From positions 30,442,001-30,506,000 of the forward strand of contig OZ024747.1 of assembly GCA_964016885.1 (NCBI GenBank): 64,000 nt of DNA. The letters run 5' to 3'. The notes under the pieces were generated by a model. That model saw nothing but the letters and a program-made list of their open reading frames with translations, searched no databases and was not told where the DNA came from. How positions within the stretch are numbered: position 1 is the first letter of the stretch; every line of letters begins with the position of its first letter. Position numbers and translations under genes: made by a program. The stretch is from Eledone cirrhosa (lineage: Eukaryota). Shown here piece by piece: positions 2,372 to 64,000 of this stretch.

Positions 2372-2714
2372 ATATTATTCAAAATGTTAATAAATGAAAA
2401 ATATTCTCATAATCAAAATATATATTGTATTATACCTATTTCAAAGGTACAATGTTGTTTAAGTACGTTTTCATCAGACAAAATATAAGATTTGATATGT
2501 GACATACCGCTACGGTTTTGATTATTCAATTCCAGTATTGACTGCCAATACTGGAATTGAATAATCCAAACTGTAGTGGTATGGCACATATCAAATCTTA
2601 TATTTTGTCAGATGAAAACGTACTTAAACACCATTGTACCTTTGAAATAGGTATAATACAATATATAGTTTGATTATGAGAATATTTTTCATTTATTAAC
2701 ATTTTGAATAATAT
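2372..2714. repeat. Near-perfect palindrome, ~170 bp arms, 5-nt loop (2541-2545)
   Basis: 2372-2540 is the reverse complement of 2546-2714 with a few mismatches (centre ccagtattg-actgc-caatactgg). Followed by (TA)n. Confidence 0.95.
2421..2487 (-). ncRNA. Type I hammerhead ribozyme motif (mirror copy on + strand at 2599-2665 has core CAGATGA)
   Basis: Minus strand reads tatattttgt-CTGATGA-aaacgtac(loop)gtaccttt-GAAA-taggta-TA-atacaatata. Stems I, II and a short stem III are present; predicted AUA cleavage triplet. Confidence 0.7.
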
Positions 2715-5630: not shown

Positions 5631-6387
5631 AAATCATAACAATGATGGTTCCTAATTTAGGCAAAAGTTCAACAATTTTGAGGGAAAGAAAGGTTGAGTG
5701 TATTGTAGAAATTATTCAATTTTATTTAGAATCCATGAAACAATTAAATGTAAGATAAATGCCCTTATTTCAATTTGACACAGGAATATGGCAGTCAAGG
5801 GAATTGAGAACACCGGAGGTCTTAATGGTGACTGCTTTAAGAAGTAACCAGTCCATTATTGAATCTATAAATTAGATTCAATGATGAGTACAAGGGCAAC
5901 TTTGATTGAATAATCTTATGATCAAAGGTATTTCAGCTGTGACCATTATATTTCTGTAGGGAGTTAACAAGGTTGATTTTATTCAATGTGTTATTTTCTT
6001 TCTTAAGAGGGTAAGGTTTGATTTGAGGAAAATTTGACTACTATGTTTAGCTGGTCAAGTAACTGTGTACATGTTTTAAAAATAAATCAGATTGTACAGT
6101 AATAATCTTTGTAAACATTTATTTAGTGTCCAAAAGCATTTCACAAATTGATTGTAAACAACTTAGATGATGCTTTCCAAACAGTTTACTTTAAAAATCT
6201 CTCATCTCTTGCTATCATATGCAGCAATACTGCGAGAGTATTGGCTTGCCTAAAAAAGTATTAAATTATTAGGGAGCTCCAGTGTCCCTTGTGGTGTGGG
6301 ATTAAGAGTGTGGGTCTTCACTCACTCTTTTTTTCTTTATTTCCTCTTTTATAGTACTGTATATATCTGTGACATCTTACATGAATG

Positions 6388-6576
6388 ATTGTTTCTACTT
6401 TTGGCACAAGGCCAGTAATTACCCAGTGTATTACTGGTACTTTATTTTATCGACCCCGTAAGGATGAAAGACAAAATTAACGTCGGTGGGATTTGAACTC
6501 AGACCATAAAGGGCTGTAACTCTTTGCTGCAAAGCATGGTGTCTGACCCTCTACCAATACTGCCAATCCACCACCC
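6388..6576 (-). mobile_element. tRNA-derived SINE (Meta-domain-like central region)
   Basis: Reverse complement of the SINE at 12538/28555/35622/62801; B-box gagttcaaatccc and ctttcatccttacggggtcgataaaataaagtaccag core. Confidence 0.85.
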
Positions 6577-6904
6577 TTACTTAAATAATTGACATGTCTA
6601 TATATAAATAAAACTGTTAAACTTCTCATACTCTTTTTGTAATATTTTGTTTTCCTTTCTCATTTTTTGTTCAAACTTCTCTCAATGATTACAACAGTCA
6701 CAAATGTGTATATACACACACATATATATATATACAAATACACACATATATACATATAAACACACTAACAAATATATGCACATACACACACATATATCTA
6801 CATACACATATGCACATGCACACAGATTCCATGAGAAATCCTTTACGTTGTCACACAACCTGCTACAAAGAGCCAAATTGCACCCTATCTTCTTTAAAAT
6901 TATA

Positions 6905-12435: not shown

Positions 12436-13080
12436 GAGATAACTGCTACTATGATTATTACCATTGTCAATGTATTGTCATCACCTTTGCCTACATTATT
12501 ACTGAACAAGGATGGGGAGGGAAGTGCTGCTATGATTGGATTGGCAGTATCGGTAGAGGGTCGGACGCCATGCTTTCCAGCATAGTTACGTCCCTTTACG
12601 ATCTGAGTTCAAATCCCGCCGAGGTTGACTTTGCCTTTCATCCTTACGGGGTCGATAAAATAAAGTACCAGTAATGCACTGGGTAATTTCTGGCCTTGTG
12701 CCTAAAGTAGAAACAATTATTACTGAACAAGGATGGGGAGGGAAGTGCTGCTATGATTATTACCATTGTCAATGTATTGTCATCACCTTTGCCTACATTA
12801 TTACTGAACAAGGATGGGGAGGGAAGTGCTACTATGATTATTACCATTGTCAATGTACTGTCATCACCTTTGCCTACATTATTACTGAACAAGGATGGGG
12901 AGATAACTGCTACTATGATTATTACCATTGTCAATGTATTGTCATCACCTTTGCCTACATTATTACTGAACAAGGATGGGGAGATAACTGCTACTATGAT
13001 TATTACCATTGTCAATGTATTGTCATCACCTTTGTCTACATTATTACTGAACAAGGATGGGGAGGGAAGTGCTGCTATGA
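12436..13080. repeat. 81-bp minisatellite interrupted by a SINE
   Basis: Unit starts (atgatt/atgaat) at 12451, 12532, 12753, 12834, 12915, 12996 and 13077. Confidence 0.95.
12538..12720 (+). mobile_element. tRNA-derived SINE (Meta-domain-like)
   Basis: A-box-like tggcagtatcggtag, B-box gagttcaaatccc, core gactttgcctttcatccttacggggtcgataaaataaagtacc, tail gtagaaacaatt. Confidence 0.9.
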
Positions 13081-20155: not shown

Positions 20156-20736
20156 ATGGTTGCAAGAAATAGTAGCAAAGGTCTCTCTCAAACAACACCT
20201 TACACTCTTTGAAAAAGAAGAACATATTGGACAGTGTAGATAGACATGTCGAAAAAAACAGAATGGTTACATATGGAAATCTTTTGATCATTTGTGAGTT
20301 CGATCATGGCTGCTAACTAAATTCTAGCAAGAACAACATAATCATCAATTTTTGTTGTGTCTCCATGCTTGCATAGTTTGTACAGGATACTATGTAAATG
20401 GCAACTATTTTAAATGTCCCAAATGCCACAAGAAAAAAGCAATTTAAATCGTAATGATGCAGTGAAATTTAATTCACTATTTTAATATTTTGTATCAGAT
20501 GCACAGCTGTTCATTAGTACGGTATGGTTTATGAGGTAAATAAAACTAGGAAAAACTTCTATTAAATATATATATATATATATACGTACATATATATATA
20601 TACATACATTTTGTCATTTTGTTTTTCCAACACGCAGGAAACTAATAAAATTTTGTTATCATACACCTGTGTTTGTCTTGTTTATTTTAAACTAAATATA
20701 TATATAGTTATGTAATAAACAACATAAGATAATTAT

Positions 20737-20797
20737 TTCATTTACCAGTGGTTTCTTGAAAGCAGATGTTGTATCTGTTTTCAGTCGTCAGAATGAA
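20737..20797 (-). ncRNA. Type I hammerhead ribozyme motif
   Basis: Minus strand reads ttcatt-CTGACGA-ctgaaaacagat(acaac)atctgctttcaa-GAAA-ccactgg-TA-aatgaa. Perfect 6-bp stem I, long stem II, short stem III, GUA triplet. Confidence 0.85.
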
Positions 20798-20908
20798 TAA
20801 AAAACATGGTGTTTTTATTAAATATGGATTTGAAAACAAAATTTAAGAAATATGAAAGTGAGGCTGAGAAAAAAATGGTCGAAGAAGAAGAGGGGAAAAA
20901 AGAATATA

Positions 20909-20954
<46 letters not shown>

Positions 20955-21914
20955 AATAAATATCCAGAACATAAACATACACACACTCAACCACGCGCAT
21001 ATACTTAAAAAGAACGTAGACGTATACTTTTTCACATAAGCGTATATGCGTCTACAGACAGGGACATAAATACATACACATACATATACATGAAGTAATA
21101 AGAATAAATAAATAAATGAATAAGAACAAAAAATACAAAGTCAAAAACAAAATAAAGACAAAAGGATACGTGTTGAGAACGATGAGTGTGTGTGGGGGAG
21201 GGGGGGAATGAAACCAGTTAAAAATAAACAAATACACGAGATGTGCATATACATAAATATATATATATATACACATACATACACATGCACACACACATAA
21301 ATACTCATACACATATAAAAACACATACACATATGTATGTGTGTATATATATATACACAAAAATATAAAATAAACATACGTACACATCCACATACACATG
21401 CGTGCAAAAATACATATACACATACACATACACACGTATATATAAACATGCATACAACCAAATATACACACACATCCACATACATACACATAAAACCCTA
21501 CAATAAATAGCATTAGTCAATAACCTACGTACATACGTAAACAAATACGTGCGCTACACGCACGTAATAAGAAATCAACACACGCATACCAAAAACCATA
21601 CGTAAATCCTAAACGAGAATTCTAAATTTTTCCGTGGTGCACATAGAACATTTCTTTGTGCCCCTTTGGTATTCTCTTGAATGGTCTAAAATAGACCAAT
21701 CAATAGTGTACGGAATGATTTTGTCTTTGAACTCCCACACTTTATTTGCAAGCGCCGTTGCTGTTCTTTTTTCAGGGTGTTTGAAAGAAGCGACATGTGC
21801 ATAATACCTGGTTTTGAATCTGTCATGCCAACATCATCATCATCATCATCAACGTTTAACGTATATATTCCACGCTTGTATGGGTTTGGACGGCATACAT
21901 ATAGGTATATACAT

Positions 21915-22228
21915 ATATACCTGCGGAGAGCCAAGTCATGGACGCTACAGAGAGTGGTCACGGAGCGTCGGTGCCGGCTGGCTGGCCATATTCTGCGTCT
22001 GCCAAATGAACGGCATTCGTAAACAGCGATGAACTGGACTCTACCTGGCGGTAAATGGAGGAGGGGTTGCCCAAGGATTACCTGGCCTCAAACGTTCCGG
22101 AAGGACCTGATGGCAGCCAACATCACCTGGCACGGTCTCGAAAAAGTTGCTGCTTATCGTGACAGTTGGCGAGTACTTACTGCTCGATGCGCCGAACGGC
22201 GCGGAAGAATCTAAGACTAAGACTAAGA

Positions 22229-22269: not shown

Positions 22270-23362
22270 ATAAACGTTCTGCGTGGTTGCTAATGGGTTA
22301 CATATGAATAAAGTTAGTCCTTCATCAGTGATCTTCCAACCATCATTGGTATTTCATCGCTTTAAAGACCATATACCTCCGGTTGGTGCAAGCAACGGCT
22401 AAAAAACGTCGTTGGGACACGTAAATAAAGGGGACACGAGAGTGTAAACAAACAAAGATGGTGAAGCAACGAAAAGTGAGGAAGAAGGAATCAAGTCCCA
22501 AATTTCCATGAATATAAGTTCGGTGAAATCGTGAACGAGAGAGAATAAAGACAATCAAACCTGGTTGGAATGTGAGCAAGGAAGGAATTCCGTACAGGTC
22601 TAACGGGAGGAAGAAGGGATCTAGTCTGTGAATTCGGTGAACGTAAGTTCTGTAAAATCGTAGACGAGAGAGAGAAAAAAAAGCGACCTACTTGACCAAG
22701 GGTGCGAAAGAAAAGAATTACGCACAGGTCAAACGGGAAGAAGGAGGAGGAGGAGAGGTAGTAACAGAGAGTGAGTGAGTGAAGGGCGAGGAAGAGGCTA
22801 ACAGAGAGAGTGACTGTTAGAGAGGGTAAAGATATAGAGAAAGAGGAAGCAGTAAGAACGAAATAGACGGGTCACAGCGGGGGAAAATATGTGTAAATAT
22901 GAGAATAAACGTGCTGCGTGGTTGCTAATGGGTTACATATGAATAAAGTTAGTCCTTCATCAGTGATCTTCCAGCCATCATTGGTATTTCATCGCTTTAA
23001 AGACCATATACCTCCGGTTGGTGCGAGCAACGGCTAAAAAAAGTCGTTGGGACACGTAAATAAAGGGGACACGAGAGTCTTGGTCAGGCAGGTCGCTTTT
23101 TTATCTCTCTCTCTCGTCTACGAGTTCACAGAACTTACGTTCACCGAATTCACAGACTAGATCCCTTCTTCCTCCCGTTAGACCTGTACGGAATTCCTTC
23201 CTTGCTCATATTCCAACCAGGTTTGATTGTCTTTATTCTCTCTCGTTCACGATTTCACCGAACTTATATTCATGGAAATTTGGGATTTGACTCCTTCTTC
23301 CTCACTTTTCGTTGCTTCACCATCTTTGTTTACACTCTCGTGTCCCCTTTATTTACGTGTCC
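22265..23362. mobile_element. ORF-less element with direct and inverted repeats (A-B-C-A-B'), PLE pseudo-LTR-like architecture
   Basis: 22265-22444 is repeated at 22900-23078. 23079-23362 is the reverse complement of ~22415-22700. Left end abuts (TA)n. Confidence 0.75.
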
Positions 23363-23809: not shown

Positions 23810-26166
23810 TGAGGTTAGTCGTTAGTGACATATCAGTAAGCAAGAGAAAACATGAGACATACAGGAAGGTGTGGAAAAGAAAGGTCTTGAATCTAAAATA
23901 CCTTTCATTAAAATATAAATTTAGCAAAGCCCTTCAAGATGTGTATGATGAAAAAGAAGACGATTTAGAGTCGTATGTCATAGATGATAACTGGAATTTC
24001 TTATGTGGCAACTTACTGCAGGCTACTGAAGCAACTTGTGGTTGGGGAATAGCTTCAACCAGACAGAGAGTAACCTGGTGGTGGAACAGCACGGTAGATA
24101 GGGCCATTCGAGACAAAAGACTGGCCTGGAAAGCTAGGAAAAATGGTGGGAGTAGAGAAGGATACACAGCCACTAAGAGAGAAGCTAGATGTCAGGTGTA
24201 CTTAGCATGCAGGGAGGCTGAAAGTAGCAGGTTTGCCAATATTCTGTGATGGGAAGATCAGAGATGTGCGGTGTTCTGCATTGCAAGGCAGTGTGTCAAT
24301 GCAAATCAGGATGTTGTTGGAGATAAATGTGTCAGGAATGATGCCGGTGTACTTAGTGTCATGAATGATCAAAAGAAGGAGGCCTGGAAATGTCATTATG
24401 AGAGACTGATGAATGTGGAGAATGAATGGGAGAGAGAGAAATTACCCCCAGTAGACCAGACAGAGGGCCAGCTATTGAGATTGACGACTATAGGGTCCAA
24501 GAGGCAATTAAGGAAATAAAAAGTAGTAAGGCTGCTGGACCGTTGGGGATAGTTGCTGAGATGCTGAAGGCATCAGGAGAAGTAGGCACTACTGGTTGCA
24601 CGCATTATCAATCAAGCTATATATGGTGGTGCCATACCCAAAGTAGTATTCTCATAAATTGCTACAAAGTTAAAGGGGATGCTCTGGAGAGGAGCAATTA
24701 TAGAGCATAAAGCTGATGGATCAGGTTATGAAAGTGGCAGAGAGAATATTAGTGCAACTGATTAGAGAAAGGATCAAATTAGATGAGATGCAGTTTGGTT
24801 TTGTGCCTCGGAAAAGTACAACAGTTGCCCTCTTAGGGAGGAAACTACAGAAGAGGTTCTTAGAGAAGAATAAGCCACTATACTTAGCTTTTGTTGACCT
24901 AGAGAAGGCCTTTGATAGGGTACCCTGATCTGTCATCTGGTGGTCCCTAATGAAACTAGCTGTAGAGGAATGGCTTGTGATGACATTGCAGGCTATGTAC
25001 AGGGGTGCTGTCAGTAAAGTGAGAGTAGGTATGGAGTTTAGTGGGGAATTCCAGATACAAGTAGGTGTACATCAGGGTTCGGTCCTCAGCCCATTCTTGT
25101 TCATTATAGTCCTCCAAGCCATAACAGAGAAGTTTAAGACTGGCTGTCCATGGGAACTTCTCTATGCTGATGATGATCTGGTTCTTATAGCAGAATCAGT
25201 AGAGTAGCTAGAGAATAAATTATGACTATGGAAACAGCAGTTGGAATCAAGAGGATTGAGAGTGAACATAGCTAAGACAAAAGTGCTGATAAGTAGAAGA
25301 GAGAACAATACTCTGATTCCATCAGGGAAATGGCCATGTTTGATATGTAGGAAAGGAACTGGCATAAATTCCACAAATTGTACACAATGCAGATCCTGGG
25401 TACACAAGAAATGTAGTGGGATAGCAGGCAAACTAACAGGTAGGGAAAACTACGTATGCAGTAGATGTACAGGGAAAGTTGGCAGTAGTAATCGCAGTGA
25501 TAGACACATTTTTCCAATGCAGGTGGGTTCTATAGAAGTGGTTGACAGCTTCCAGTACCTAGGTGATCAGATTAGCATGGGAGGGGCATATTCAGAGGCC
25601 ATAGTATCTAGAATAAGGACGGGTTGGAAGAAGTTTAGGGAGCTGCTTCCTCTGTTCACAAAGAAGGGTTTCTCCCTGCGTACAAAAAGACAGTTATATG
25701 ATGCCTGTGTGAGATGCGCGATGCTGCATGGTAGTGAGACATGGGCAGCAACTGCAGAGGATATGCGACGGCTGGAGAGAAATGAAGCAAGCATGCTCTG
25801 TTGGATGTGCAATGTCAATGTGCGTGAACGACCAAGCATGGACTATTTGAGAAAGAGACTGGGTATAAGAGGGATGAGTTGTGGTGTGCAGGAGAGAAGG
25901 CTGAGATGGTATGGACATGTGATGCACATGGAAGATGACCACTGGGTAAAGAAGTGCCAAGAAATCCCAGTAGAAGGAAGACGCAGTAGAGGTAGACCAC
26001 GAAAAACATGGGCGGAGGTGGTGAGAGCAGACCTCAGATTGCTGAAAATCACCGAGGAGATGATGAAGGACTGTGACGAATGGAGAGATGCTGTGTTGAA
26101 TAGGACCCATCCAACCCTTGCAAGCAGGGAAAAGCGGACGTAAAATGATGATGATGATGATGATGA
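23810..26166 (+). mobile_element. 5'-truncated, decayed RTE-clade LINE with PHD-like Cys/His insert after the RT core; (GAT)n tail
   Basis: WWWN, SNYR, QFGF, FVDLEKAFDRVP, GVHQGSVLSP, LYADDDLV, then CLIC...CTQCRSWVHKKC...CSRC, WYGHV, GRPRKTW. Multiple stops and frameshifts. Tail at 26145-26166. Confidence 0.9.
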
Positions 26167-28554: not shown

Positions 28555-28741
28555 AGTGGAAGATTGGCAGTATCAGTAGAGAGTTGGATGCCATGCTTTC
28601 CAGCATAGTTACGTCCCTTTATAGTCTGAGTTCAAATCCCGCCGAGGTTAACTTTGCCTTTCATCCTTACGGGGTCGATAAAATAAAGTACCAGTGATGT
28701 ACTGGGTAATTGCTGGCCTTGTGCCAAAAGTAGAAACAATT
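28555..28741 (+). mobile_element. tRNA-derived SINE with 16-bp TSD
   Basis: SINE consensus match; attaatagtagaagac at 28539-28554 and 28739-28754. Confidence 0.9.
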
Positions 28742-29262: not shown

Positions 29263-29808
29263 AATATATTAACAAGGTTAATAATTTAAGAGATCAAACT
29301 TGGTTGAAATATGCCTAGAAGGTTTAAAGCTAAATGTGTTTCTACAATCTGCAAATATAATGAACCGATTCATCTGAGCTGTAATCCATAGTGTAAACAA
29401 TTCAAATATTGTACAACTGTAAGTTATTAATATGTCATTGTAATATCTACATATTTCATCTTTAGTGGATTTTCCACTTCTCAAATTTATGATGATGTAT
29501 GCATTTTTAATGCATTTGAAATGAAAATTAATATACATAAGAATATGTTTCTTTTATTTTCTTTTTCATTATTCTTTTGTTTTAAGCCTGGTTAATAATA
29601 TATGGATTACTTCCATCACTCTTGCTAGCAAGAAAAATGGACATTAAAACGACGATGATGATGATGCTAGCTTACTAAAAGGAAAGAAAAAAATTAAAAC
29701 TATTACTATCTTTAATTTTTATCCAGTTGTAGAAATGTATATAAGACTAATAAAATGATATAAATTCTGTTTAGGTGCTTGGTTGAATTATTATTATTAT
29801 TATATTAT

Positions 29809-29925
29809 TTCAAGTCCTGCCGAGGTTAACTTTGCCTTTCACCCTTACAGGGTCGATGAAATAAAGTACCAGTAATGCACTGGGATAATTCCTGGCCTTG
29901 TGCCAAAAGTAGAGACAATTATTAT
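29809..29925 (+). mobile_element. 5'-truncated tRNA-derived SINE in an (ATT)n tract
   Basis: gccgaggttaactttgcctttcacccttacagggtcgatg...gtagagacaattattatt. Confidence 0.85.
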
Positions 29926-35621: not shown

Positions 35622-35811
35622 GGGCGGTGGATTGGCAGTATCGATAGAGGGTCTAACGCCATGCTTTGCAACAAAGAATTATGGCCCTAGCCATTCTGAC
35701 TTCTAATCTCGCCGAGGTTAACTTTGCCTTTCATCCTTATGGGGTCGATAAAATAAAGCACCAGTAATACACTGGATAATTGCTGGCCTTGTGCCAAACG
35801 TAGAAACAATT
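35622..35811 (+). mobile_element. tRNA-derived SINE with ~20-bp TSD
   Basis: gggcggtggattggcagtatc...gtagaaacaatt; attatttatattgtaaataa at 35602-35621 and 35809-35828. Confidence 0.9.
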
Positions 35812-43374: not shown

Positions 43375-46300
43375 AGATATGTTTCTTTTATTTGCCACCA
43401 GGGCATCAAAAGTGGGACAAGTACAATGGGGGAAGTTTACAAAACAAGGCGTCCTCAATAAGGAGGAGGCAATAACAATATATAAAAATAAAATAAAATA
43501 TAACAAAAAATAAAATTTATAACAAAGTCCTCAATTGCACACACCCCCGAAAGAAAGTGTGCAACCCTTTTCCTCAGGAGCACAGAGAAGGGGTGCTCCC
43601 TTGGTCTTTCATCTTCCTCACCTATAGTCTGATGTAGAGTCAAGGCCCATTCACACGGGCCATTCTCGCCACTTTCACCCATCTTTCATAAAAACGGCTG
43701 GGGTGCAGCACCTCTCTCTCCATCCTGATCCTTCTTCCGAAATGATATCGGAAGAAACGGACCAGTTGTTGGCCAGAGAGAAAGGTGTCTGACCTCAGTC
43801 CTTTCAGACGCGTCCACCATACAACCTCTTTCGCCATGGCTATTATGCACAGAAACACTGCCTCTTCTTCGTTTTTGAAGAGGGGAGGCGGCTTGATCGT
43901 TACAATAGACTCGGTGGTCAACCGGATCGGTCCCACCCTTGACAGCAGTTGTTCAAGATAGCCCCACAGATCGGCAATGCCCGAGCAGTGTACCAATCGT
44001 GTGCAACGGTTTCCTCGTCGCACACGCATCTGGGACAGATCTTTTTTGAGGGGTCCCTACCCGGGCGCCCGTGTCTGTAGAGCCTTTCTCAAATGGGCAG
44101 AGCCCTTCTGTAGCATTGTCAGGCCAGGGACCTCTGGAAGTTATCCATGGGTCCCGGGCTGAATGTCCTACCGAACAGGTTGGCTAGTTCGTCTTCCTCC
44201 ATGCCTAGGGCTTCTACGAGAGCGTCGTCGCACCTGCTAACCACCAGCCCTCTATAGAATGACGAGGTGGATTCTCCACTTACAGCCGGGTCCGCCTGCC
44301 AGAGAGCCGTGAGCGCCTGGGCACACTCGGTGTGCCAGGCGCCCAGTTTTCTCGGTCTTTGCTTGACCCAGGATTGCAGCTCGGTGAGTGAGACGAGTCT
44401 GGGAAAGGCTCGCCTCACAAACGGGGCCCACACCGGTTGACCGGAGAGGAATACCTGAAGGTGCCGTAGCCTTAATGCGTGTTTACGTATCATTAGCCAC
44501 GGCATCCCCAGCCCTCCTTTCGAAGGGTGTTGACAGCAGATGGATCGCCTCACCATAGGAGCCCGCTTCTTCCAAAGGAATTGGAAGAGTGCGCGCTCCA
44601 TTTTGGCGAGCGTTTCCCTTGGACAAGGCACAACGGTCAGGCGGTAGTAGATGACGGACGCTATATAAGTGTTCGCCACCTCCGCCCGATCTTTCAGGGA
44701 CAGTTTGCACTCGGCCCACTTCTGGGTCAGTGCAAACACCCTGTTCGTTACCTCACCCCAGTTCTTCTCCACCTGGAGGTCTGGTCCGAACCAGACCCCG
44801 AGCAACTTCACCGGGCCCTCCATCCAGTGCCCGACGACGCCATCGAAGGGCATCGATCTGCCCCTCCACATGCCGAGTTGCAGACCGATCGACTTGTCCC
44901 GATTCAGCTTAGTCCCTGTAAACCTTTCATACTCCTCCAGTAAGGTGCAGATCGCCCCGATTTCCGAGGCCGTTGACACCATTACTGTTACGTCATCGGC
45001 GTAGGCCGACACCGCTTTCCGCAATCCCGGTTCCAACGGGATGCCCTGCAACGACTCCAACTTCCGCAGCAGTGGCTCTAGAGTCACTACATACAGAAGG
45101 GAGGAGAGAGGGCACTCCTGTCGGATGGACCGCGCGATTTCGAACGGCTCCGAGAGGTAGCCGTTCACCTTGACCCTAGAGCAGATGCGGCTGCTGTGCA
45201 TGGCATTGATCCAGCCCCTGAAAACGGGTCCGAAGCCTGCCGCCGCTAGTACCGCATCCAGGTAACCATGGTCGACCCTATCGTATGCCTTAGATTGATC
45301 CAAGTTGATCAGGGCCCCACCAAAGCCGGGTTCGTTCCCAACCCTCTCTATGATGTATCGCATGAGGTGGAGGTTGTCGTGGATGGACCTGGACGGGATA
45401 GCATATGTCTGCGCATCTCCCACCAGGTTGCCCACGACAAGCGCCTACCTCTTTGCTAGCACCTTGGCCAAAATCTGTAACTCTGTATTTAGCAGAGTTA
45501 TGGGCCTGAAATTATTTATATCGTCCCCCTTGTTCTCGTCCTTCCTCACTAGCGTGACTACGCCCTTGGTCACAGCACAGGGAATTCTCCCGTTCTGTTG
45601 CCAGTTGCAGTAAACCGCCTCGAGGAGATCGGGGAACAAATCCGGCATAGCTAGATATAGTTCGTATGGAAGACCATCGAGACCCGGGGATTTGCGTTTG
45701 CCGCATTGGCTCAGCACGTCCTCTATCTCAGCAGCTGAAATCGGCTCCTCGCAGGACTTCGCCTCCCTGTCTGAGAGACGCGGCAGGCCGTCAAGGTATG
45801 GACCGAAGTCCACATCCCCAACCGGCCCCCCGCCCCTTCCGAACAATCCGGCAAAGTGCTTTTGAAAAGCCTTGCACATCTGCTTAGTTTCAAGGATCAT
45901 CCGTCCATCCTGGTCTCGCAAAGACCGGATAGTGGATCTGCTCCCTCTTTTGGCTTCTGTCACGCGGGCCCAGCTAACAGCTTTGGTCTCCTTGTTTCCC
46001 AGAGCACGTATTTTGCTTCGGACGATGCAGCCTTCGTGTTTCGCGTCGAAGAACTGGCCCAGGGCCGTTCTCGATGCTAGCACTCTGGCCACGTCGCCGC
46101 TTCTAATTGCCTCTTCTACACTATCTACCAACTCCCTTTCCTTCCTATTTCTATTTGAGGCTAACTCCTTACTAAATTCTATAGAGACTACTCTAATCTC
46201 TCTTTTGAGAGATCCCCACCACCTGCTGTTGACGATGGCGCCCGTCAACCGCTCCTTAACTAAAGTGCTAATCCGGTCCCTGTAAGCCTTACTTGCCGGT

Positions 46301-47080
46301 AAGGACAAGTTGAGCTTCCAGTAACCGGGTCCCTGTCTATGTGTTCTGTCAAGGTTGACCATGTAGGTCACTAACTTGTGGTCTGAATAGCCAACCATGC
46401 GCATTTTTGGACAACTTAAAAAGTCCTTATCCTTAATTCTAACTAAGAACCTATCTAGGTACGACCTAGATGATCCGCTACGATTTGCCCAAGTCCAGGT
46501 TGGCGCAGTCGGAAAATCTAGTCGATATCTATCGGCCAGGTCAAATCGACCGATTAACCCTTTGAGGCTATTACACCCCTCTCTATCGGGACAGGCCCCT
46601 ACGTAGTCCCAGCGTGCATCTAGGATACCATTCCAGTCCCCCACTAATAGCAAGGAGCGGGACGTCTCTAGAAAAGTCTCCAGACGATGGAAGAAGTCCG
46701 GCCGCATTGACCCGAAAGGGCCGTAGGCGGCTACCAACCTAAACGCTCCGCCTTTACCACTGCCAAGGTCCAGAACCACTAGTCGACCCTCCGGGTCATA
46801 ATGTACCATCTGTGTTGCGAGACCCAGATGTTTTTGCAGCAGAACGTCAACCCCACCCCCACCTCCTTCAGCCATTTTTATCAAAATGAAATTTTTCGAA
46901 AGATTACATTTTTACAACACTATTTCGCCTAAAGGCGTAGAATATTTTGAGAGACTGACCAGATCAAAGTTTGACCTGGCAGTCTCTCTACAAAATGGTA
47001 CAAAAATGAAAGTTTACAGTTCACAATTTCCAGATAAATTTAAACGAAACTTACCGAGCGAGCTCAGCACATGTGTCTAT
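43375..47080 (-). mobile_element. Tx1/L1-clade LINE ORF2 (APE+RT+C-terminal), few lesions, ORF1 absent
   Basis: ORFs 45445-46884, 44119-45435 and 43640-44029: VGDWN, YLDR, YSDH, YWKLN, KSPGLDG, FRPITLLN, KAYDRVDH, YADDVT. AATAAA at 43387-43392(-). Confidence 0.9.
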
Positions 47081-49375: not shown

Positions 49376-49640
49376 CATATATATATATACATTATACACA
49401 ATATATTAATAAATGGAAACTATATTTATAAAACCATATTTATTTTATTATATATATTTCAAGGGCAACCAAGGCAAATTATGGTGCGCTTTCATCAGAT
49501 AAACTACAGATTTGTTTTATAAATAAATATTGACATACCCGGAAAAAAAGACAACCTTAACGGTTGGAGCTTCCTGGATATGAAATTTTTAAGCTTGTTG
49601 AATCCCAACAAATTAAATATAACCTCTGCATATATATATA

Positions 49641-49789: not shown

Positions 49790-52700
49790 CATACATATAC
49801 ACACACACACACACATACTCACACACACATACATTAATAACAATAATAATAATAATAATAATAACAACAATAATAATAAGGCCAACAATAATAATATACA
49901 TATACATATATATATACACACACACGCACACACCTAAGCATATCTACACACACACACACACGATAGCAACTAACAGCGCTGCGATCAAATGTGGCTTTTT
50001 AGCCCAGCCAATGATCTAAAATGTCTTGCACAGAGTGGGCAACCAAAACATTCACTGGGAATAGTCAGCTGTGGTTGGAGTTCGTGTACTTTTGCATGTC
50101 GCTTGAGCCCTCCTGCTGATTTACATTCTCTACCACATGTTTGGCAAGCATGATGAGTAGCATCTCCAACAGCAGCCTGGTAGTCAACCACTGGTCTTAC
50201 TTTATGACTGCGAAGATGACTTTCGAGTCCAGCTTTGCTTAGGCAGAGTCTTGCACATACGCTGCATGTCAGCACCATAGGAGGACCCTCGCGGTCTGGA
50301 AGTGCAACAGCAATGCCCTTCCTCACATCCCGCTTTACTTTCTCGTATGCGATTCGAGATGTCTCAAAGGCAACTTTTCCCTCATATACAGTCTTTCTCC
50401 ATTTATTACGATCAGCAGCAACATTCTCCCATGTATCAGCAGAGATGTTAGCGTCTTTCAGAGAGGCTTTCAAGGAATCCTTATACCTCTTTTTTGGTTT
50501 ATGTGGCGGTCGTTTTCCTTTAACCAACTCTCCATAAAAGAGTTGTTTTGGTATTCTAGAATCCTTCATCCTGGCAAGGTGACCACTCCAACGGAGGCGT
50601 TGCTTAAGCACAAGAACTTCTATACTGTCACACATAGAGCTTTCTAAAATCTCGACATCACTGATGTGGTCCCTCCAGTGAACGCCATGAATCTGTCTGA
50701 GACACATCTGATGGAAACGCTCCAATTGCTTAAGGTGGTGTCGATATGTGACCCAGGTCTCGCAGGCATAAAGAAGACAAGAGAGCACACATGCCCTGTA
50801 CACCTTTACCTTTGTCTTCCTGCATATGTCTCGCCGACCGCAGAGTCGCCTTTCTAGCTTTCCGAAAGCATCACTTGCTTTCCTAATCTTAAGTGAGATT
50901 TCACTGTCAAGGTTGCTGTATCGATTGACAGTGCTTCCCAGGTAGACAAACTGATCAACCACTCCAAGTCGTTTGCCATACACATAGATGTTTGGTTCAG
51001 TGTACTGCTTACCAGGGGCAGGTTGGTACATGACGACGGTTTTCTTGAGACTGACAGTCAGACCTAGGGCCGTGCAAGCGTCAGAAAATGCATTCAAAAT
51101 GTGCTGCATATCACTCTCTGTGTGCGCTACAAGATCGCAATCATCTGCATACAAGAGGTCTCTTATGATTGATGTAAATACTTTTGTCTTCGCAGCAAAG
51201 CGCCTGATGTTAAATATGCTGCCTGAGGTGAGGTTCGATATCGGATGTAAACACCATGCTCGCAATTCCTGAATGCAATACAGAAAACCATTGCAAAGTA
51301 TATGGCAAACAGGGTCGGTGCTGGAATATCCCCCTGTTTCACTCCATTTTTTACTGAGATGTTACCCCCGACATTAACCCAAGCCTTCATGTCGTCATGG
51401 AAAGACCTAACTAAAGCAAGGAACTTATCAGGGCAACCAAGTTTCTGGAGAACCTTCCATAATGCATCTCTGTTAACAGTATCGAAAGCTTTTGTCAGAT
51501 CAACAAAAACCTGATACAGATCCAAGCCTTGTTCCATGCACTTCTCTTGGAGCTGTCTAGCTGAGAAGATCATATCAGTAGTGCTGCGTCCAGCACGAAA
51601 ACCAGATTGACTTTCAGGAAGAACACAATCTGCAATGTGTGTCAGCAGACGGTCCAGAAGCACCCTACATAAAACTTTCCCTACGACAGAAAGCAATGAT
51701 ATACCTCTGTAGTTCTCACAATCGTTCCTGTTACCCTTTCCCTTGTACAAGACCACCATTACTGCATCTCTCCAGTCCTCAGGTACGGATTCATTAGCCC
51801 ATATCCTTCCAAACAAAGAGTGAAGATGCTGCAGGAGTCTCTCACCACCATATTGTAGGAGCTCAGCATGTATGCCATCCATACCTGGAGATCTTCCACT
51901 GTTCAGCTTCGAAATAGCCACTGCAACCTCCACAAGCGTCGGAGGTTCTGCGAGAGCTACTTTCACAGGACTTTCTGGAATGAGATTGAGGAAATCTTCA
52001 CTGACGACAGACGGCTGATTCAAAAGATCATCAAAGTGCTCTCGCCACCTTTGTAGAATTCCTTGTGAGTCACGAAGAAGTTCTTTGCCATCCTTGCTGC
52101 GAAGCGGTGTCACCAGAGAAGAAGACGGTCCATAAACCTCACGCAAGAGACTGTACAACAGCTTTGTGTTATTGGAATCAGACGCAGTTTGTATCTCACC
52201 AGCCTTCTCACTCCACCACTGATCCTTCATCTGAGAAAGACTCCGCCTAACACGTGATTTTACATCCCTGAGTTCCTCATGCAACGTATTCCTCTTCTGT
52301 GGTTTTGCCATCAAGTAGCATGACAGAGCACGCCTCTTATCAGCCAACAAGTCTTCTATATGTACATCATTCTCATTAAACCAGTCCTGATGTTTCCTCT
52401 GCACCAATCCCAGAACACGCCTGCCTACATCATAAACCGACTTTTTAAGGGTCGGCCAATCCTCACCAAGATCTGCAGCCTGCATCTCTTCTTCCAATGT
52501 CCTCTTCACATTTTTATCCTTAAGACGAGCAGCATTCAATCTTTTGGGCAGGGCAACACCAGAAGCCCGGATTTTACGTTTAGTGATTAGTTTCACTTTT
52601 GCGCGTACCAGGCGGTGGTCCGTCCAGCACTCAGCTCCACGAAGAACACGAACACACTGCACATCCTGTCTGTCACGCATCCTGACTAGGACGTAGTCCA

Positions 52701-53534
52701 AAAGATGCCATTCCTTAGATGCAAGATGCATCCATGTGGTCTTGAATTTGTTCTTTTGTTGGAACATGGTGTTGGTAACACACAGATCCAGCTCCTCACA
52801 CATCTGCAGCAGGAGCATACCATTGCTGTTACACTTTCCCACCCCATGCCTTCCGATTACATTCCATGTGTTAAAATCCCTACCCACTCTAGCATTAAAG
52901 TCACCAAGCACAATGACTTTGTCTGCCTGAGGGATATTTCTTAAAACACCTTTCAAGGCATGGTAAAAGGACACCTTTTCCTCATCGACAGAACTCATAG
53001 TTGGAGTATACACACTCACCAGGGTAGCATATCTTCCCTTGTCCAGTGGAACTCTCATGGACATAAGACGCTCACTAATCCCTACTGGGAATTCTTCTAA
53101 TTTGTTCACAAGTACAGTCTTAACAGCAAATCCTTCCCCAGCCTCTCTTCTGGTTCCTTCATCTCTTCCTTTCCAGAAGAATGTATATTCTCCACAAAAT
53201 TCCGTAAGATGACCATCTCCAGATAACCTTGTCTCAGATAAAGCCACGATGTCAAGATCGTAACGTCAAAGCTCCTTTGCAACAAGAGCGGTCCTTCGTT
53301 TAGGACGCTCCAAGGAATCCCTGTCAAGCAGCGTCCGCACGTTCCAGCAGCCAAGACTAAATGCCTTGTTTGGCTCTATTACAATGGCACGATCACGAGC
53401 GGGCCCAGGCTGTGATAACCTGGGGCCCCTGCCCTTATTGCCAATGATCTTTTTTGTTCCAGAACCTAAATTGCCAATTATCTGTTTTATATTGTTCTGG
53501 AACATCATTGAATTGGAAAAAAAAAGTAATAATA

Positions 53535-54396: not shown

Positions 54397-54467
54397 AAGA
54401 AAAAGGGATGAAATCAAAAATGCAACTGAAGTCTTTTTTTTTTAAAAATATATATATTTATTTGGTT

Positions 54468-54505
54468 CCTTTACCGGTTTCGCAGTTCTTCTGCTTTTCA
54501 AAAGG
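54468..54505 (-). ncRNA. Minimal hammerhead, U3-A8 core variant (inverted copy)
   Basis: Exact reverse complement of 55787-55824. Confidence 0.75.
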
Positions 54506-55786
54506 TGAGTTGAGATGGAGGGTCTGTGGTTTTTCTCACATCTGGTTGGTCTCTAAATGTTACTTGTTTTATATGGAAAAACTGGCTCGAAAACCAGGTT
54601 TTTCGAGAAGTAATTTGATTGGTTTGTCAATAATTATAATAAATTTCGCGCCAGTTCGCGTTACAATAGTTCTTCAAATAAGAGAGGGGGGGGGGGGGGG
54701 TTGTCACAGGTTGTTTTTTCATATATGAGGTTTTTCATATATGAGGTTTAATATACATTATGTCAACACCACAATATGACATACACACACACACATAACA
54801 CCTACTTTAGAAAATAAAAACCCGAACTAAATAAACCTTAAACATACGTTTGCACTGGCAATACAACAGCAAACACGAAAAAGTCAGGAAAATATGTTCA
54901 TTCAAAAATATTCCTACTAAAGGAATCATTTTCCTACACACACACATACACACACACAATATATATATATATATATATATATTCTCTTCATCTTAACATG
55001 CTAACCATACTCCCACACACATAACACCCATACACACACATAAAAACCCCCACACCTACAACACCCTCCCCATTTCTACTAATAGAACCACTTTCCTACA
55101 CACATATATATATATACACACACACAAAAAATATATATTCTCTCTATCTAACATACTCGCACACACACACATAACACCCATATACACACACACACAACTC
55201 CCTCCCCCATCTCTACTAATAGAATCATCTTCCAATACACACATACACACACACACACACATATATACACACACACAAGCACACAAATAAACACATATCT
55301 TCAGTCTCAATAGAAAATCTGAACTCTGACACCTGAACTCTGACAGCTGGCCATATTCACTGAACCAGAACATTTCTCCCAATCCCTTTTCCCTTGACCA
55401 CTATCTCTCCATTGTCATAACATTCACTATAGACTACAGAATAGTTTTCCAAATAAGGGCGCAAAAATGTAATGAAAACTTGTTCACGTGACAGCCAAAT
55501 TTCATTTATAACCAACCAAAAAAAAGCCTTCGTGAGCCTCATTTTTTCAAGTAAAAAGAAATTCAAACACTCATATATGAAAAAACAACCTGTGACAACC
55601 CCCCCCTCTCTTATTTGAAGAACTATTGTAACGCGAACTGGCGCGAAATTTATTATAATTATTGACAAACCAATCAAATTACTTCTCGAAAAACCTGGTT
55701 TTCGAGCCAGTTTTTCCATATAAAACAAGTAACATTTAGAGACCAACCAGATGTGAGAAAAACCACAGACCCTCCATCTCAACTCA

Positions 55787-55824
55787 CCTTTTGAAAAGCA
55801 GAAGAACTGCGAAACCGGTAAAGG
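55787..55824 (+). ncRNA. Minimal type I hammerhead, U3-A8 core variant, palindromic stem III
   Basis: cctt-TTGAAAA-gcag(aagaa)ctgc-GAAA-ccgg-TA-aagg. Confidence 0.75.
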
Positions 55825-55955
55825 AACCAAATAAATATATATATTTAAAAAAAAAATAAGACTTCAGTTGCATTTTCGATTTCATCCCTTTTTCTTTATA
55901 CTTCCACTCGTGTAGGACACCTCGGTTATTTTTCATTTTGTAAAAAAAACCTCAC

Positions 55956-58411: not shown

Positions 58412-58440
58412 AGATCAAATATGGTTAAAAGAGTTCCAAG

Positions 58441-58511
58441 TATTTTATTATGTGCATTTCAAAAACAAATATCATCATGGGATGATATCTGCGATTTCAT
58501 CAGATAAAATA
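58441..58511 (-). ncRNA. Type I hammerhead ribozyme motif, canonical core
   Basis: Minus strand reads tattttat-CTGATGA-aatcgcagatatcatc(ccat)gatgatatttgttttt-GAAA-tgcaca-TA-ataaaata, with an 8-bp stem I. Confidence 0.85.
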
Positions 58512-58711
58512 GGGATACATGATATGAAGCTTAAAAAACACTTGTGAATAGTGAAGTTTTAAATCAACATATGAAAAATAATTGAAGATTGATGTATGAG
58601 ATTGGGAAAAAGTGAGGGGTGGGGTTGGAAAAGGTAAGGAAAAGGAGATGAGAGTAAAGAATGGTGGGGGAGGAGTATAAGAAGGAAGGATGAGAGAGGA
58701 GGAGAGATGGG

Positions 58712-58825
<114 letters not shown>

Positions 58826-59603
58826 CTCACAGAGAGAAGTTAAAAACCCGTTGGAAGATAATAGATAATTTAAAAGTAATTGAAATTAAAAGTTAATGAG
58901 CTTTATGCATGAAGAGAAAAAGAGATTAAGAATAATATTATTAAATTAAGGTTTGTATATTGAAGGGTTTAATAATATGTGCGAGGAAAAGAAATTATTA
59001 ATATGTATTATTAAAATAAAAATATTAATGTTATTAAGGATATAATGTGAAAAGAAGTAAAAGAATGAATGAGTTATGAATTTAGAGGAATTAGTTAGTG
59101 TTTGAGTTTATTTTTATGTAATGTAGTATGTGTGCGTAATATATGTACGTAAATAGTTTGTTTAAAAATGAGCGCAGAAAGCAAAGAAGAAAATAATGTT
59201 TAAGGAAGAAAATATCTAACATAAAAAAATATATATGTTTACGAAATATTTTCTAATGGTAATAATATAATATAATATATTAAAAGAAATTAGCTAGGGT
59301 TTAAGTTTGTTTTTATGTATTGTAATATGTAAAAGTCAAACGAGCATGTAAGGAAGAAATAAGGAATTTAAGGAAGAAAAATCTAACGTCAAAAAAATGT
59401 TTATGTTTACGAAGGACTATTAAAGGTAATACTATAATGTATTAAAAAAAATAATTTTTACTCTCATCTCCTCCTCTTCCTTACCTTTTTCAACCCGCCT
59501 CACTTTTTCCCAATCTCATACATCAATCTTAAATTATTTTTCATATGTTGATTTAAAACTTCACTATTCACAAGTGTTTTTTAAGCTTCATATCATGTAT
59601 CCC

Positions 59604-59674
59604 TATTTTGTCTGATGAAAACGCAGATATCATCCCATGGTGATATTTGTTTTTCAAATGCGCATAATAAAATA
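59604..59674 (+). ncRNA. Hammerhead copy with G12C lesion (CAAA) and palindromic stem III TGCGCA
   Basis: tattttgt-CTGATGA-aaacgcagatatcatc..ggtgatatttgttttt-CAAA-tgcgca-TA-ataaaata. Confidence 0.7.
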
Positions 59675-60036
59675 CTTGGAACTCTTTTAACCATCTTTTG
59701 ATCTTATATTATTTATACTCCAGTCCTACAAACTGTAGAGTGCTTCTTATCCGATATTTGCATTGCTTTATTGTGCTACAATAAAACTCACCTCCTACAC
59801 ACATATATATATATATATAAATGAAAGTATAGAAATTATATATATATATAGAGAAATTATATATATATATAGAAATTATATATATATATATAAAAGTTAA
59901 TCTGGGTTCAATCGGAGGTAACCACAGTAAGTAAGGTACTCAATACATATCACAGTATAAATGTTTAATATAGAAAAGCTTCTAGAGGACTAGAACTGTT
60001 TCATTCATACTGTGTATATATATATATATATGTATT

Positions 60037-60139
<103 letters not shown>

Positions 60140-61763
60140 GGACCAGAAATACATATAGTAATCTATTCGACATTACTATGGGCTCTAGTAATTCTGCCCA
60201 AATTACCGATCTTGTGAGCCTCTTTCTTCTATTTAACATAAATGCTTCTTTTCGCCACCTTAAAGGTGGTTTATATCGTGATGACTGTCTTCTTCTTTCC
60301 ACTAACCTTAGCCTATCAGAAATTGAAAAAAATAAAAAACTTATTAGAACTTTCCTCAAAGACTATTATAGTCTCACTATTACATTTGAAAACACCAGTG
60401 AAGTAGTAAATTTCCTTGATATAACTTTAGACTTATCTACGGGTATCTACGAACCTTACCATAAACCTAACCAAAACTTACATTACATACACTCACAATC
60501 CAATCACCCTAGATCTATCCTTAAAAACCTAGCATATAATATCTCACTCAGAATTTCTAACCTTTCATCTAACCACGATGTATTCGATAAAAATGCGACC
60601 TTTTATAACGAAGCTTTAGCTAGAAGCGGCCACAAAAACAAATTAGTATATATACCTTGTACCAATAATACTACAAACATACAACCCAATATTACCAACA
60701 AACACCAAATGAAAAATACACACCTAAATGCCACTCACGCTATACCCCAAAATACCAACTTAAAACTTAATATCTCTACCTCTTCTCACATACAATATAA
60801 TAACTTTTAAAAAACCATTCATTCTAATACTCCAATATATGTTAATAACATTACTAACAAAATTCCTAATAATCAGACTAAAACACCTAAATCAGTGAAT
60901 CTAACTAAACATATGTATAATAAATTCACTAATACTAACTCTCTTAGTAAACATCAGGATACATCGTATAAAAAAAAAACAGCATCGAAACCGTAATAGA
61001 CGAGTTACTTGGTATAATGCTCCTTTTAATCTACAAATTAAAGATAATATCCCTAAAAATTTGTTTACTATCATAGAGAAAAACTTCCCGCCAAACCATA
61101 AATACCATCAAATTTTAAATAGATCAACGGTCAAATTCTCCTACTCCACTACCAAAAATATACAACAAAATATAAGTGCCTACAATGCATATAAATGTAA
61201 AATAAACCATGAATATACCACCAACACATCAAACTAACCATAATACTAAAATAAACCACAGTAAACCACCATCTCCTTCACATACAACAAGTCGAGTAAA
61301 TTCCACACCTAATTTGACTAACTCCCCTGATATAATATTCACGAAAGGTTGTAACTGTAGAAACAAAGCAAATTGCCCATTAAAAAGAAATTGCCTTATT
61401 AATAACATAGTATATACATGTAAAATTAGCACTAAGGACTCAACTTATTCATATATAGGAGCTATTTCTAACCAATTTAAAGTAAGATTTAATACCCACA
61501 AACACAGTTTTAAAAATGCCACATTAGCTAATACAACATCCTTGGCTGCAATAATTAATAATTATAGAAAAAAGAATATCGATTATAACCTGACCTGGAG
61601 TGTCCTCAAAAGGGCCACCCCTTATCAAAATAACAGATATGAGTGTAGATTATGTTCCCAGGAACTTTTTGAAATAATGAAATCTAAGGATATCCTATTA
61701 AATAAGCGACAAGAATTTATTATATCGTGCAATCATAGAATTAGAAGAACTTTCAAATATTAT

Positions 61764-61892
61764 TGTTTCTACTTTAGGCACAAGGCCAGCAATTACTCAG
61801 TTCATTACTGGTACTTTATTTTATCGACCCCGTAAGGATGAAAGGCAAAGTTAACCTCGGCGGGATTTGAACTCCGCCGAGGTTAACTTTGG
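61764..61892 (-). mobile_element. 5'-truncated SINE with fold-back end and 20-bp TSD, inside the Naiad ORF end
   Basis: gaagaactttcaaatattat at 61744-61763 and 61893-61912. Confidence 0.9.
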
Positions 61893-62800: not shown

Positions 62801-62993
62801 GGGCGGTGGATTGGAAGTATCGGTATAGAGTCGGACACCATGCTTTGAAGCATAGAGTTACGTCCCTTTATGATCTGAGTTCAAATCCCTCCGAGGTTAA
62901 CTTTGCCTTTCATCCTTACGGGGTGATAAAATAAAGTACCAGTAATATACTGGGTAATTGCTGGCCTTGTGCCAAAAGTAGAAACAATTATTA
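62801..62993 (+). mobile_element. tRNA-derived SINE
   Basis: gggcggtggattgg...gagttcaaatccc...gtagaaacaattattatt. Confidence 0.9.
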
Positions 62994-63654: not shown

Positions 63655-64000
63655 TAATAGCAACATATATTTATGATTGTTCTGTAGAACAGGAGGTTAA
63701 TTATATGTTTAAATTTTGCCAATGCTCCGATGACTTCAAATGGCTGTTTGGAAGAAACGATTGTCAGCAATGAAATAAAATGTATCGAACATAGTTTTGA
63801 TTGTTTTGAACTTTATATATATATATATGTATATATATATAAAGTTCAAAACAATCAAAACTATGTTCGATACATTTTATTTCATTGCTGACAATCGTTT
63901 CTTCCAAACAGCCATTTGAAGTCATCGGAGCATTGGCAAAATTTAAACATATAATTAACCTCCTGTTCTACAGAACAATCATAAATATATGTTGCTATTA
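63655..64000. repeat. Perfect palindrome (160-bp arms, runs off window) centred on (TA)n; third partial copy at 63125-63180
   Basis: 63655-63814 is the exact reverse complement of 63841-64000. Confidence 0.95.
63720..63772 (+). ncRNA. Hammerhead motif with U4C core (mirror copy 63883-63935 on - strand)
   Basis: caatgct-CCGATGA-cttcaaat(ggct)gtttggaa-GAAA-cgattg-TC-agcaatg. Confidence 0.65.

Follow-up and report, generated by a model that had tools for sequence, protein, structure and literature searches.

A type I hammerhead motif at the end of a truncated Penelope-like element, putatively of the Hydra clade, in the genome of Eledone cirrhosa

The window, i.e. the whole stretch of 64,000 nucleotides analysed here (Eledone cirrhosa assembly GCA_964016885.1, contig OZ024747.1, positions 30,442,001 to 30,506,000), carries on its minus strand, at 20737-20797, a motif in which the CUGAnGA, GAAA and UH core elements and three helices are arranged in the order of a type I hammerhead, and which forms part of a terminal repeat (pLTR) belonging to a Penelope-like element (PLE). 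Stem I consists of six Watson-Crick base pairs (20797-20792 with 20742-20737), the CUGACGA box occupies 20785-20791, hammerhead position 7 being C, U or G across subfamilies, a tolerated variation, and the GAAA box is located at 20755-20752. Stem II is composed of 5 + 5 base pairs with a C.A mismatch at its base and an A.C mismatch in the middle; stem III, ACCA-C-UGGU (20744-20752), is palindromic, with 3 bp in the monomer and a predicted 8 bp in a strand-swapped dimer. Hammerhead positions are numbered here according to the standard scheme. The R10.1-Y11.1 pair closing helix II is absent from the motif, which has C.A there; the same C/A arrangement occurs among canonical motifs in the excerpted table of PMC8557442 (PLE-X1_cBra), in which stem II frequently has unpaired bases at its foot. 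Cleavage is predicted after GUA, between 20743 and 20742, from the sequence and from the NUH rule (PMC4191386, cited, as are all articles below, from excerpts).

A strict type I descriptor matched once in the whole window, at this motif, and returned no matches on 60 block-wise dinucleotide shuffles; a looser hammerhead scan gave five candidates in the window. The intact CUGACGA/GAAA/GUA core and perfect stem I, pointed out in an earlier sequence-only reading of this DNA, were read on the minus strand and passed the strict descriptor. The minimum-energy fold of the 70-nt stretch was the hammerhead, with modest stability (z -2.0; 8 of 200 shuffles folded equally well), and the 94 matches obtained in an Rfam scan at E ≤ 1, mostly microsatellite artefacts, included none to a hammerhead family. 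Descriptor, fold and the covariation of stem II among relatives confirm 20737-20797 as a genuine hammerhead motif. No host gene was identified over it.

Past the motif, a terminal segment (20705-20736, minus strand) runs to what we call the "short" end of the family, 38 nt past the cut and devoid of the ~65-nt tail of "long" ends, where an 11-nt (TA)n target microsatellite (20696-20706) marks the end of the insertion; the distance to this tract, anticipated at about 35 nt, is 30 nt when measured from the motif and 38 nt when measured from the cut. On the other side, the CpG-rich block at 20798-21609 (minus strand) represents the distal microsatellite-rich 3' UTR, with 84.5% identity to the full-length copy L078 over 977 columns. 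Comparison with the copies L036 and L078 placed at 21610-21614 (minus strand) the junction of an internal deletion of ~830-890 nt, by which the end of the endonuclease codons and the proximal 3' UTR were removed. Beyond it, at 21615-21827 (minus strand), translation revealed a remnant, ~70 stop-free codons long, of a C-terminal endonuclease of the GIY-YIG type; this remnant, with which the copy ends on its 5' side, shows 87-97% identity to copies bearing a reverse transcriptase (RT) upstream. The search for family boundaries that had been proposed was thus productive: homology is bounded by the TA tract on one side and by 21609 on the other, resuming at 21615-21827 past the deletion. Interpretation of 21615-21827 as an inverted arm was ruled out by its collinearity across the deletion with L036, L037 and L042. 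A full-length probe detected no further piece of the element elsewhere in the window, and neither a second ribozyme of this family nor a tail was present in the window or within 10 kb on either side. It should be added that a different sequence (21828-22225), framed by repeats of ATC and by short direct repeats, adjoins the 5' limit.

The ratio of observed to expected CpG was 1.31 in 20800-21630 vs 0.54 in the whole window. Stop-free frames of up to 154 aa in this block are of low complexity, and a Pfam search of the two longest of them gave no match; its description as CpG-rich and non-coding therefore holds for composition and for the absence of a credible ORF, and fails from 21615 onward, where the endonuclease-coding remnant begins. 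The motif had also been called solo, which is correct as far as a neighbouring family ribozyme is concerned and incorrect in that the body of the element is present upstream. It was correctly assigned to a PLE 3' end, and the element can be specified further as one of the Hydra clade, its endonuclease remnant lying directly upstream; the suggestion of a non-autonomous element, on the contrary, has no support, since a coding family is represented here by a copy with deletions. The window copy is, in summary, a 5'-truncated, internally deleted and dead copy of a coding PLE family.

The conserved copies, which had been named as a check, were found in searches covering a 3.0-Gb genome: the 61-mer of the motif occurs exactly nine times, the window copy included, and a 31-mer from the 3' part of the hammerhead 330 times. 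The 196-nt end gave at least 41 matches at 93-100% identity (among the best 40 of 1,554 candidates scored), and the 3' 20-mer, which spans several subfamilies, was found 11,295 times at no more than one mismatch vs once for the control. The family unit measures ~4.3 kb (4,358 nt from tail to tail in L084) and consists of a tail with the 5' UTR, a single ORF encoding RT followed by the GIY-YIG endonuclease, a microsatellite-rich 3' UTR of ~1.7-1.9 kb and the hammerhead. It inserts into (TA)n, and tandems of hammerhead, tail, 5' UTR and ORF were present in 4 of 20 extended loci (L079, L086, L090 and L091). As an observation apart, different PLE families are nested in each other's terminal (TA)n tracts in L010, L012, L014, L038 and L188.

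RT preceded the C-terminal endonuclease in the fuller copies among 30 loci picked by RT DNA, a lower-bound sample drawn from the best 40 of 1,428 candidates scored. Motifs of the Hydra clade were distributed over these 30 loci as follows: RWK in 6, DKT in 13, CxCx5C in 17, CxxC in 27 and CxH in 17, the misses being due to many loci being truncated or frameshifted. The GIY-YIG span was devoid of Cys, and hence of CCHH cysteines, in four copies inspected. No intact ORF was present in any of the 30 loci; among open stretches with motifs, 430 codons was the greatest length. A homologue search returned 546 matches, nearly all of them unnamed proteins, with the best at 59% identity; relatives at about half identity extend to 700-750 aa. 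Searches of six proteins against Pfam and of one against PDB sequences gave no RT or GIY-YIG match, and the domain calls are consequently based on motifs read by eye against the supplementary alignment of PMC8557442, as far as excerpted. By these motifs, the family is assigned to the Hydra-clade PLEs, and it appears distinct from the published Hydra-1_Obim, with an unusually long 3' UTR, being of a kind already known.

The two types of ends deserve a closer description. A short-end marker 38-39 nt past the cut was kept in 87 of 137 family motifs, long ends also including it, and the long end, ~101-106 nt past the cut, was reached in 40 of the 137; the extra ~65 nt correspond to the start of the next unit. 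Among 20 divergent pairs, four with an internal GUG copy and one cut by the locus edge were set aside; one long and one short end were combined in 14 of the 15 readable inverted pairs, and two long ends in none. A one-sided tail in inverted PLE copies has been described (PMC8557442). The window copy carries the short end. We considered the tail-less short end as a mark of the 5' inverted arm and dropped this as not diagnostic, since both the short (L078, L080) and the long end (L042, L084) occur on arms with an ORF. Copies never end at the cut site, which suggests that the template ran through it, in line with the idea of a circle or an uncut precursor (PMC4209133).

Some further observations concern the tail. 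Complementarity exists between its last bases and the 3' strand of stem I, e.g. at L002:1432-1538 (minus strand), and the helix predicted between tail and stem I is formed by 37 of the 42 long ends, stopping where insertions stop, with z of -3.9 in L002 and -1.5 in L009. As a general rule such a helix was rejected, being absent in one folded tail from each of two other families. A GAGTGCT/AGCACTC-like heptamer occurs in tails of all three families and in the 5' UTR of the present one, and is possibly a candidate protein-binding site.

Stem II varied in a concerted manner in an alignment of 41 of the 54 listed copies, from which 13 redundant or damaged rows had been left out: four pairs were changed on both sides, in 21 cells vs 8.4 in shuffled data, a cell count inflated by kinship among copies, while the number of covarying pairs did not exceed that in shuffles (161/500). 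Paired cells made up 92.4%, a share raised by the omission of the 13 rows, and no two-sided change was seen in stems I and III among these copies. In 25 relatives parsed from 33 picked by the 3' 20-mer, the position of the A.C mismatch in stem II of the window copy was occupied by G-C in 20, and that of C.A at the foot by U-A in 12; better-formed subfamilies than that of the window copy thus exist. The complete set of four integrity tests was passed by 7 of 19 RT-picked, 15 of 33 20-mer-picked and 17 of 30 end-picked motifs.

The strand-swapped dimer was the co-fold minimum, with -27.0 vs -9.0 kcal/mol for the monomer, pair energies that take no account of tertiary contacts. The isolated 61-mer adopted the monomer fold with a stem III probability of ~0.7, so that some monomer activity is possible, and with flanks of 30-260 nt the probability of stem I was 0.37, 0.00 and 0.01 in three longer contexts. 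The fold is therefore predicted to need the dimer and to be lost in the flanking context. Related PLE hammerheads were reported to show no cleavage as monomers and weak cleavage as dimers (PMC4209133). Against this background, the proposal that this motif is the most likely one to be active retains its best fit to the descriptor, and is weakened by the lack of a cis partner, the A.C mismatch and a stem I probability of 0.00-0.37 with flanks.

As regards age, the window copy differs from the majority of the copies compared at 4 of 213 and 2 of 196 bases, and to that extent "young" is appropriate. RT-picked copies, on the other side, deviate from their majority by a median of 5.5% and have no intact ORF, and two further families in the window are tighter: under the same top-hit selection, ends of the present family were at a median of 2.7% from the majority, those of the families at ~49,480 and ~58,480 at 0.6% (12 rows) and 1.3% (19 rows), respectively. 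These two hammerhead families are younger than the one discussed here. Both "young" and "most likely active" are thus weakly supported for the window copy. High CpG retention in turn says little on youth, because transition rates are uneven, the CpGs are repeat-borne and octopus transposons are reported to be unmethylated (PMC9476566). Transitions in the ORF affected 7.1% of CpG vs 4.9% of other C/G (1.5-fold), in one UTR segment 8.9% vs 2.2% (4-fold), and in the endonuclease piece there was no excess over other C/G; CpG retention was rejected as an age clock on account of this unevenness. Most CpGs of the block 20800-21630 lie in alternating purine-pyrimidine repeats.

The hammerhead of the first of these younger families, at 49437-49510 (minus strand), has an AU stem III that is palindromic; its ends are either long or short and its targets TA, and 40 of the 45 matches listed were at 99%, besides the query itself. 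The other, at 58437-58515 (minus strand), belongs to an inverted pair with an arm near 59498-59698 (plus strand), with one short and one long end. A degenerate hammerhead-like core is located at 2399-2489 (minus strand). Elsewhere in the window we observed long inverted-repeat insertions (2372-2714, 22450-23331, 54436-55856 and 63655-64000), LINE-type ORFs that are broken and match AP endonuclease and RT (44119-46911 and 49985-53265, both minus strand, the latter ending in C2H2 zinc fingers), a PHD-finger ORF (25226-26143, plus strand) and a SINE-like dispersed short repeat (6381-6583, 12596-12690, 28619-28713, 29797-29891, 35689-35783, 61752-61874 and 62868-62962), one copy type of which also interrupts PLE copies (L037).

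We consider it highly probable that the motif terminates a broken copy of a high-copy Hydra-clade PLE, that the family likely cuts tandem RNA as a swapped dimer, and that the ribozyme is likely idle at this locus. Two ribozymes would pair via stem III, which is palindromic, with cleavage following GUA; RT would begin cDNA synthesis from a nick in (TA)n, using as template an RNA that spans the cut site, either uncut or re-circularised; copies would end beyond the cut because of such a template. The window copy would then have lost its 5' part and ~0.85 kb internally. As it has no ORF, no 5' end of its own and no neighbour ribozyme, and folds poorly in context, cleavage would require both read-through transcription and pairing with a ribozyme in trans.

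Resemblance to a hammerhead by chance in AT-rich DNA, to which the missing Rfam match and the z of just -2.0 might point, has a negligible probability: none of the 60 shuffles satisfied the descriptor, core and stems are retained across subfamilies with a rewritten loop II, and the motif sits at the place expected in a PLE, so that family context refutes this explanation. The CpG-rich block and the hammerhead might alternatively form a young, independently mobile non-autonomous element or a retrozyme, as many copies are short and without ORF and the block has a CpG ratio of 1.31. This is very improbable and largely refuted, since the block is the 3' UTR of a coding family, joined here to endonuclease codons, and the 5' ends of homology are scattered over 20888-21609 among 29 other loci; retrozymes, moreover, are short tandem repeats and the window copy is single.

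An active monomeric ribozyme which, perhaps co-opted, cuts a host transcript or a read-through RNA at this locus would be consistent with the intact core, the GUA site, the perfect stem I, the hammerhead fold in isolation, the closeness of the window copy to the majority of its relatives and the absence of the tail, by which, as predicted, stem I is sequestered in 37 of the 42 long ends. It is nevertheless an unlikely explanation with stem III of just 3 bp, the C.A mismatch at the base pair of stem II and the low probability of stem I in the three longer contexts. Intactness requires no selection at this site, because the identical 61-mer occurs at eight other loci, and this, together with the lack of an identified host gene over it, argues against this explanation.

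The broken-copy reading, with its dimeric cleavage, can be set beside a sister subfamily, in whose 3' UTR a second, internal copy of ~110 nt of its own end is located (L095-L124, e.g. L119; L031:4566-5875). In 30 loci retrieved with the GUG query, the cleavage position was G in 27 and A in 3, an endonuclease-region match was found near the internal copy in 25, mostly ending ~300 nt upstream, and a same-strand GUA motif followed 0.65-1.46 kb downstream in 17; in L111 and L121 both the internal and the terminal hammerheads have GUA. The GUG 25-mer was counted 349 times in the genome and the GUA 25-mer 4,045 times, cores were intact in 22 of 26 GUG and 22 of 24 GUA copies, and 4 of 99 columns distinguish the majority sequences of the two. 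A GUG triplet is uncleavable (PMC4191386). Selection against the internal cut is only suggested, because the GUG sample is query-biased and represents one evolutionary event. We found no mention of an internal GUG duplicate in the excerpts yielded by a thin literature search. One may speculate, although this is rather improbable, that hammerheads cut in vivo as cis dimers, the internal GUG copy being a helper half and lone ends being silent without a partner: an end copy of ~110 nt would have landed in the 3' UTR ~300 nt after the endonuclease and changed from GUA to GUG with its core kept, and a transcript of a single unit would receive one cut, in the terminal hammerhead lying 1.0-1.5 kb further downstream. 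Variants for a test are naturally available in the family: ends of both lengths, stem II with and without mismatches, and units combining an internal GUG with a terminal GUA.

The literature already contains hammerheads at the ends of PLEs, Hydra elements of octopus and lone motifs, by the thousand, left by truncated copies, and the in vivo role of PLE hammerheads is stated to be unclear in the excerpted text of PMC8557442. The motif shares with published PLE hammerheads the type I order, a long helix II, an extra base at the start of stem II and a small palindromic helix III, as well as the occurrence mostly as single motifs of truncated PLEs or as close opposite-strand pairs. It differs in that the G10.1-C11.1 pair, called highly conserved, is C.A here and U-A in 12 of the 25 parsed relatives, and in its 10-bp stem II with an inner mismatch. 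The family shows the features of EN+ PLEs, i.e. a single ORF with RT and C-terminal GIY-YIG, of which the window copy keeps the endonuclease remnant only, and pLTRs, both direct and inverted, with a one-sided tail and the hammerhead. With the Hydra clade of C-terminal EN+ PLEs (Craig et al. 2021, PMC8557442) it has in common the (TA)n targets, the 3' type I hammerhead, RT followed by GIY-YIG, the motifs RWK, DKT, CxCX5C, CxxC and CxH, and the lack of CCHH cysteines. The stem III sequence, ACCA-n-UGGU, is shared with Hydra-1_Obim, from which stems I and II and the protein differ, as read by eye in the excerpts of PMC8557442. The unit of ~4.3 kb and 3' UTR of 1.7-1.9 kb contrast with the 2.5 kb and "generally <3 kb" given in that source, where the limit of 3 kb is a tendency of the Hydra clade and not diagnostic; pLTR tandems are present in our family, and its tail is ~65 nt vs the 30-40 bp quoted for PLEs (PMC8557442). 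In the Naiad clade, as described in the same source, the endonuclease is N-terminal and a canonical hammerhead is lacking, whereas here the endonuclease is C-terminal and the hammerhead is present. Metazoan non-LTR retrozymes (PMC7229834; bioRxiv 10.64898/2026.07.22.740005) likewise have a type I hammerhead of PLE descent in high copy; they consist of head-to-tail repeats of 200-400 nt, in contrast to the single motif with a coding remnant described here.
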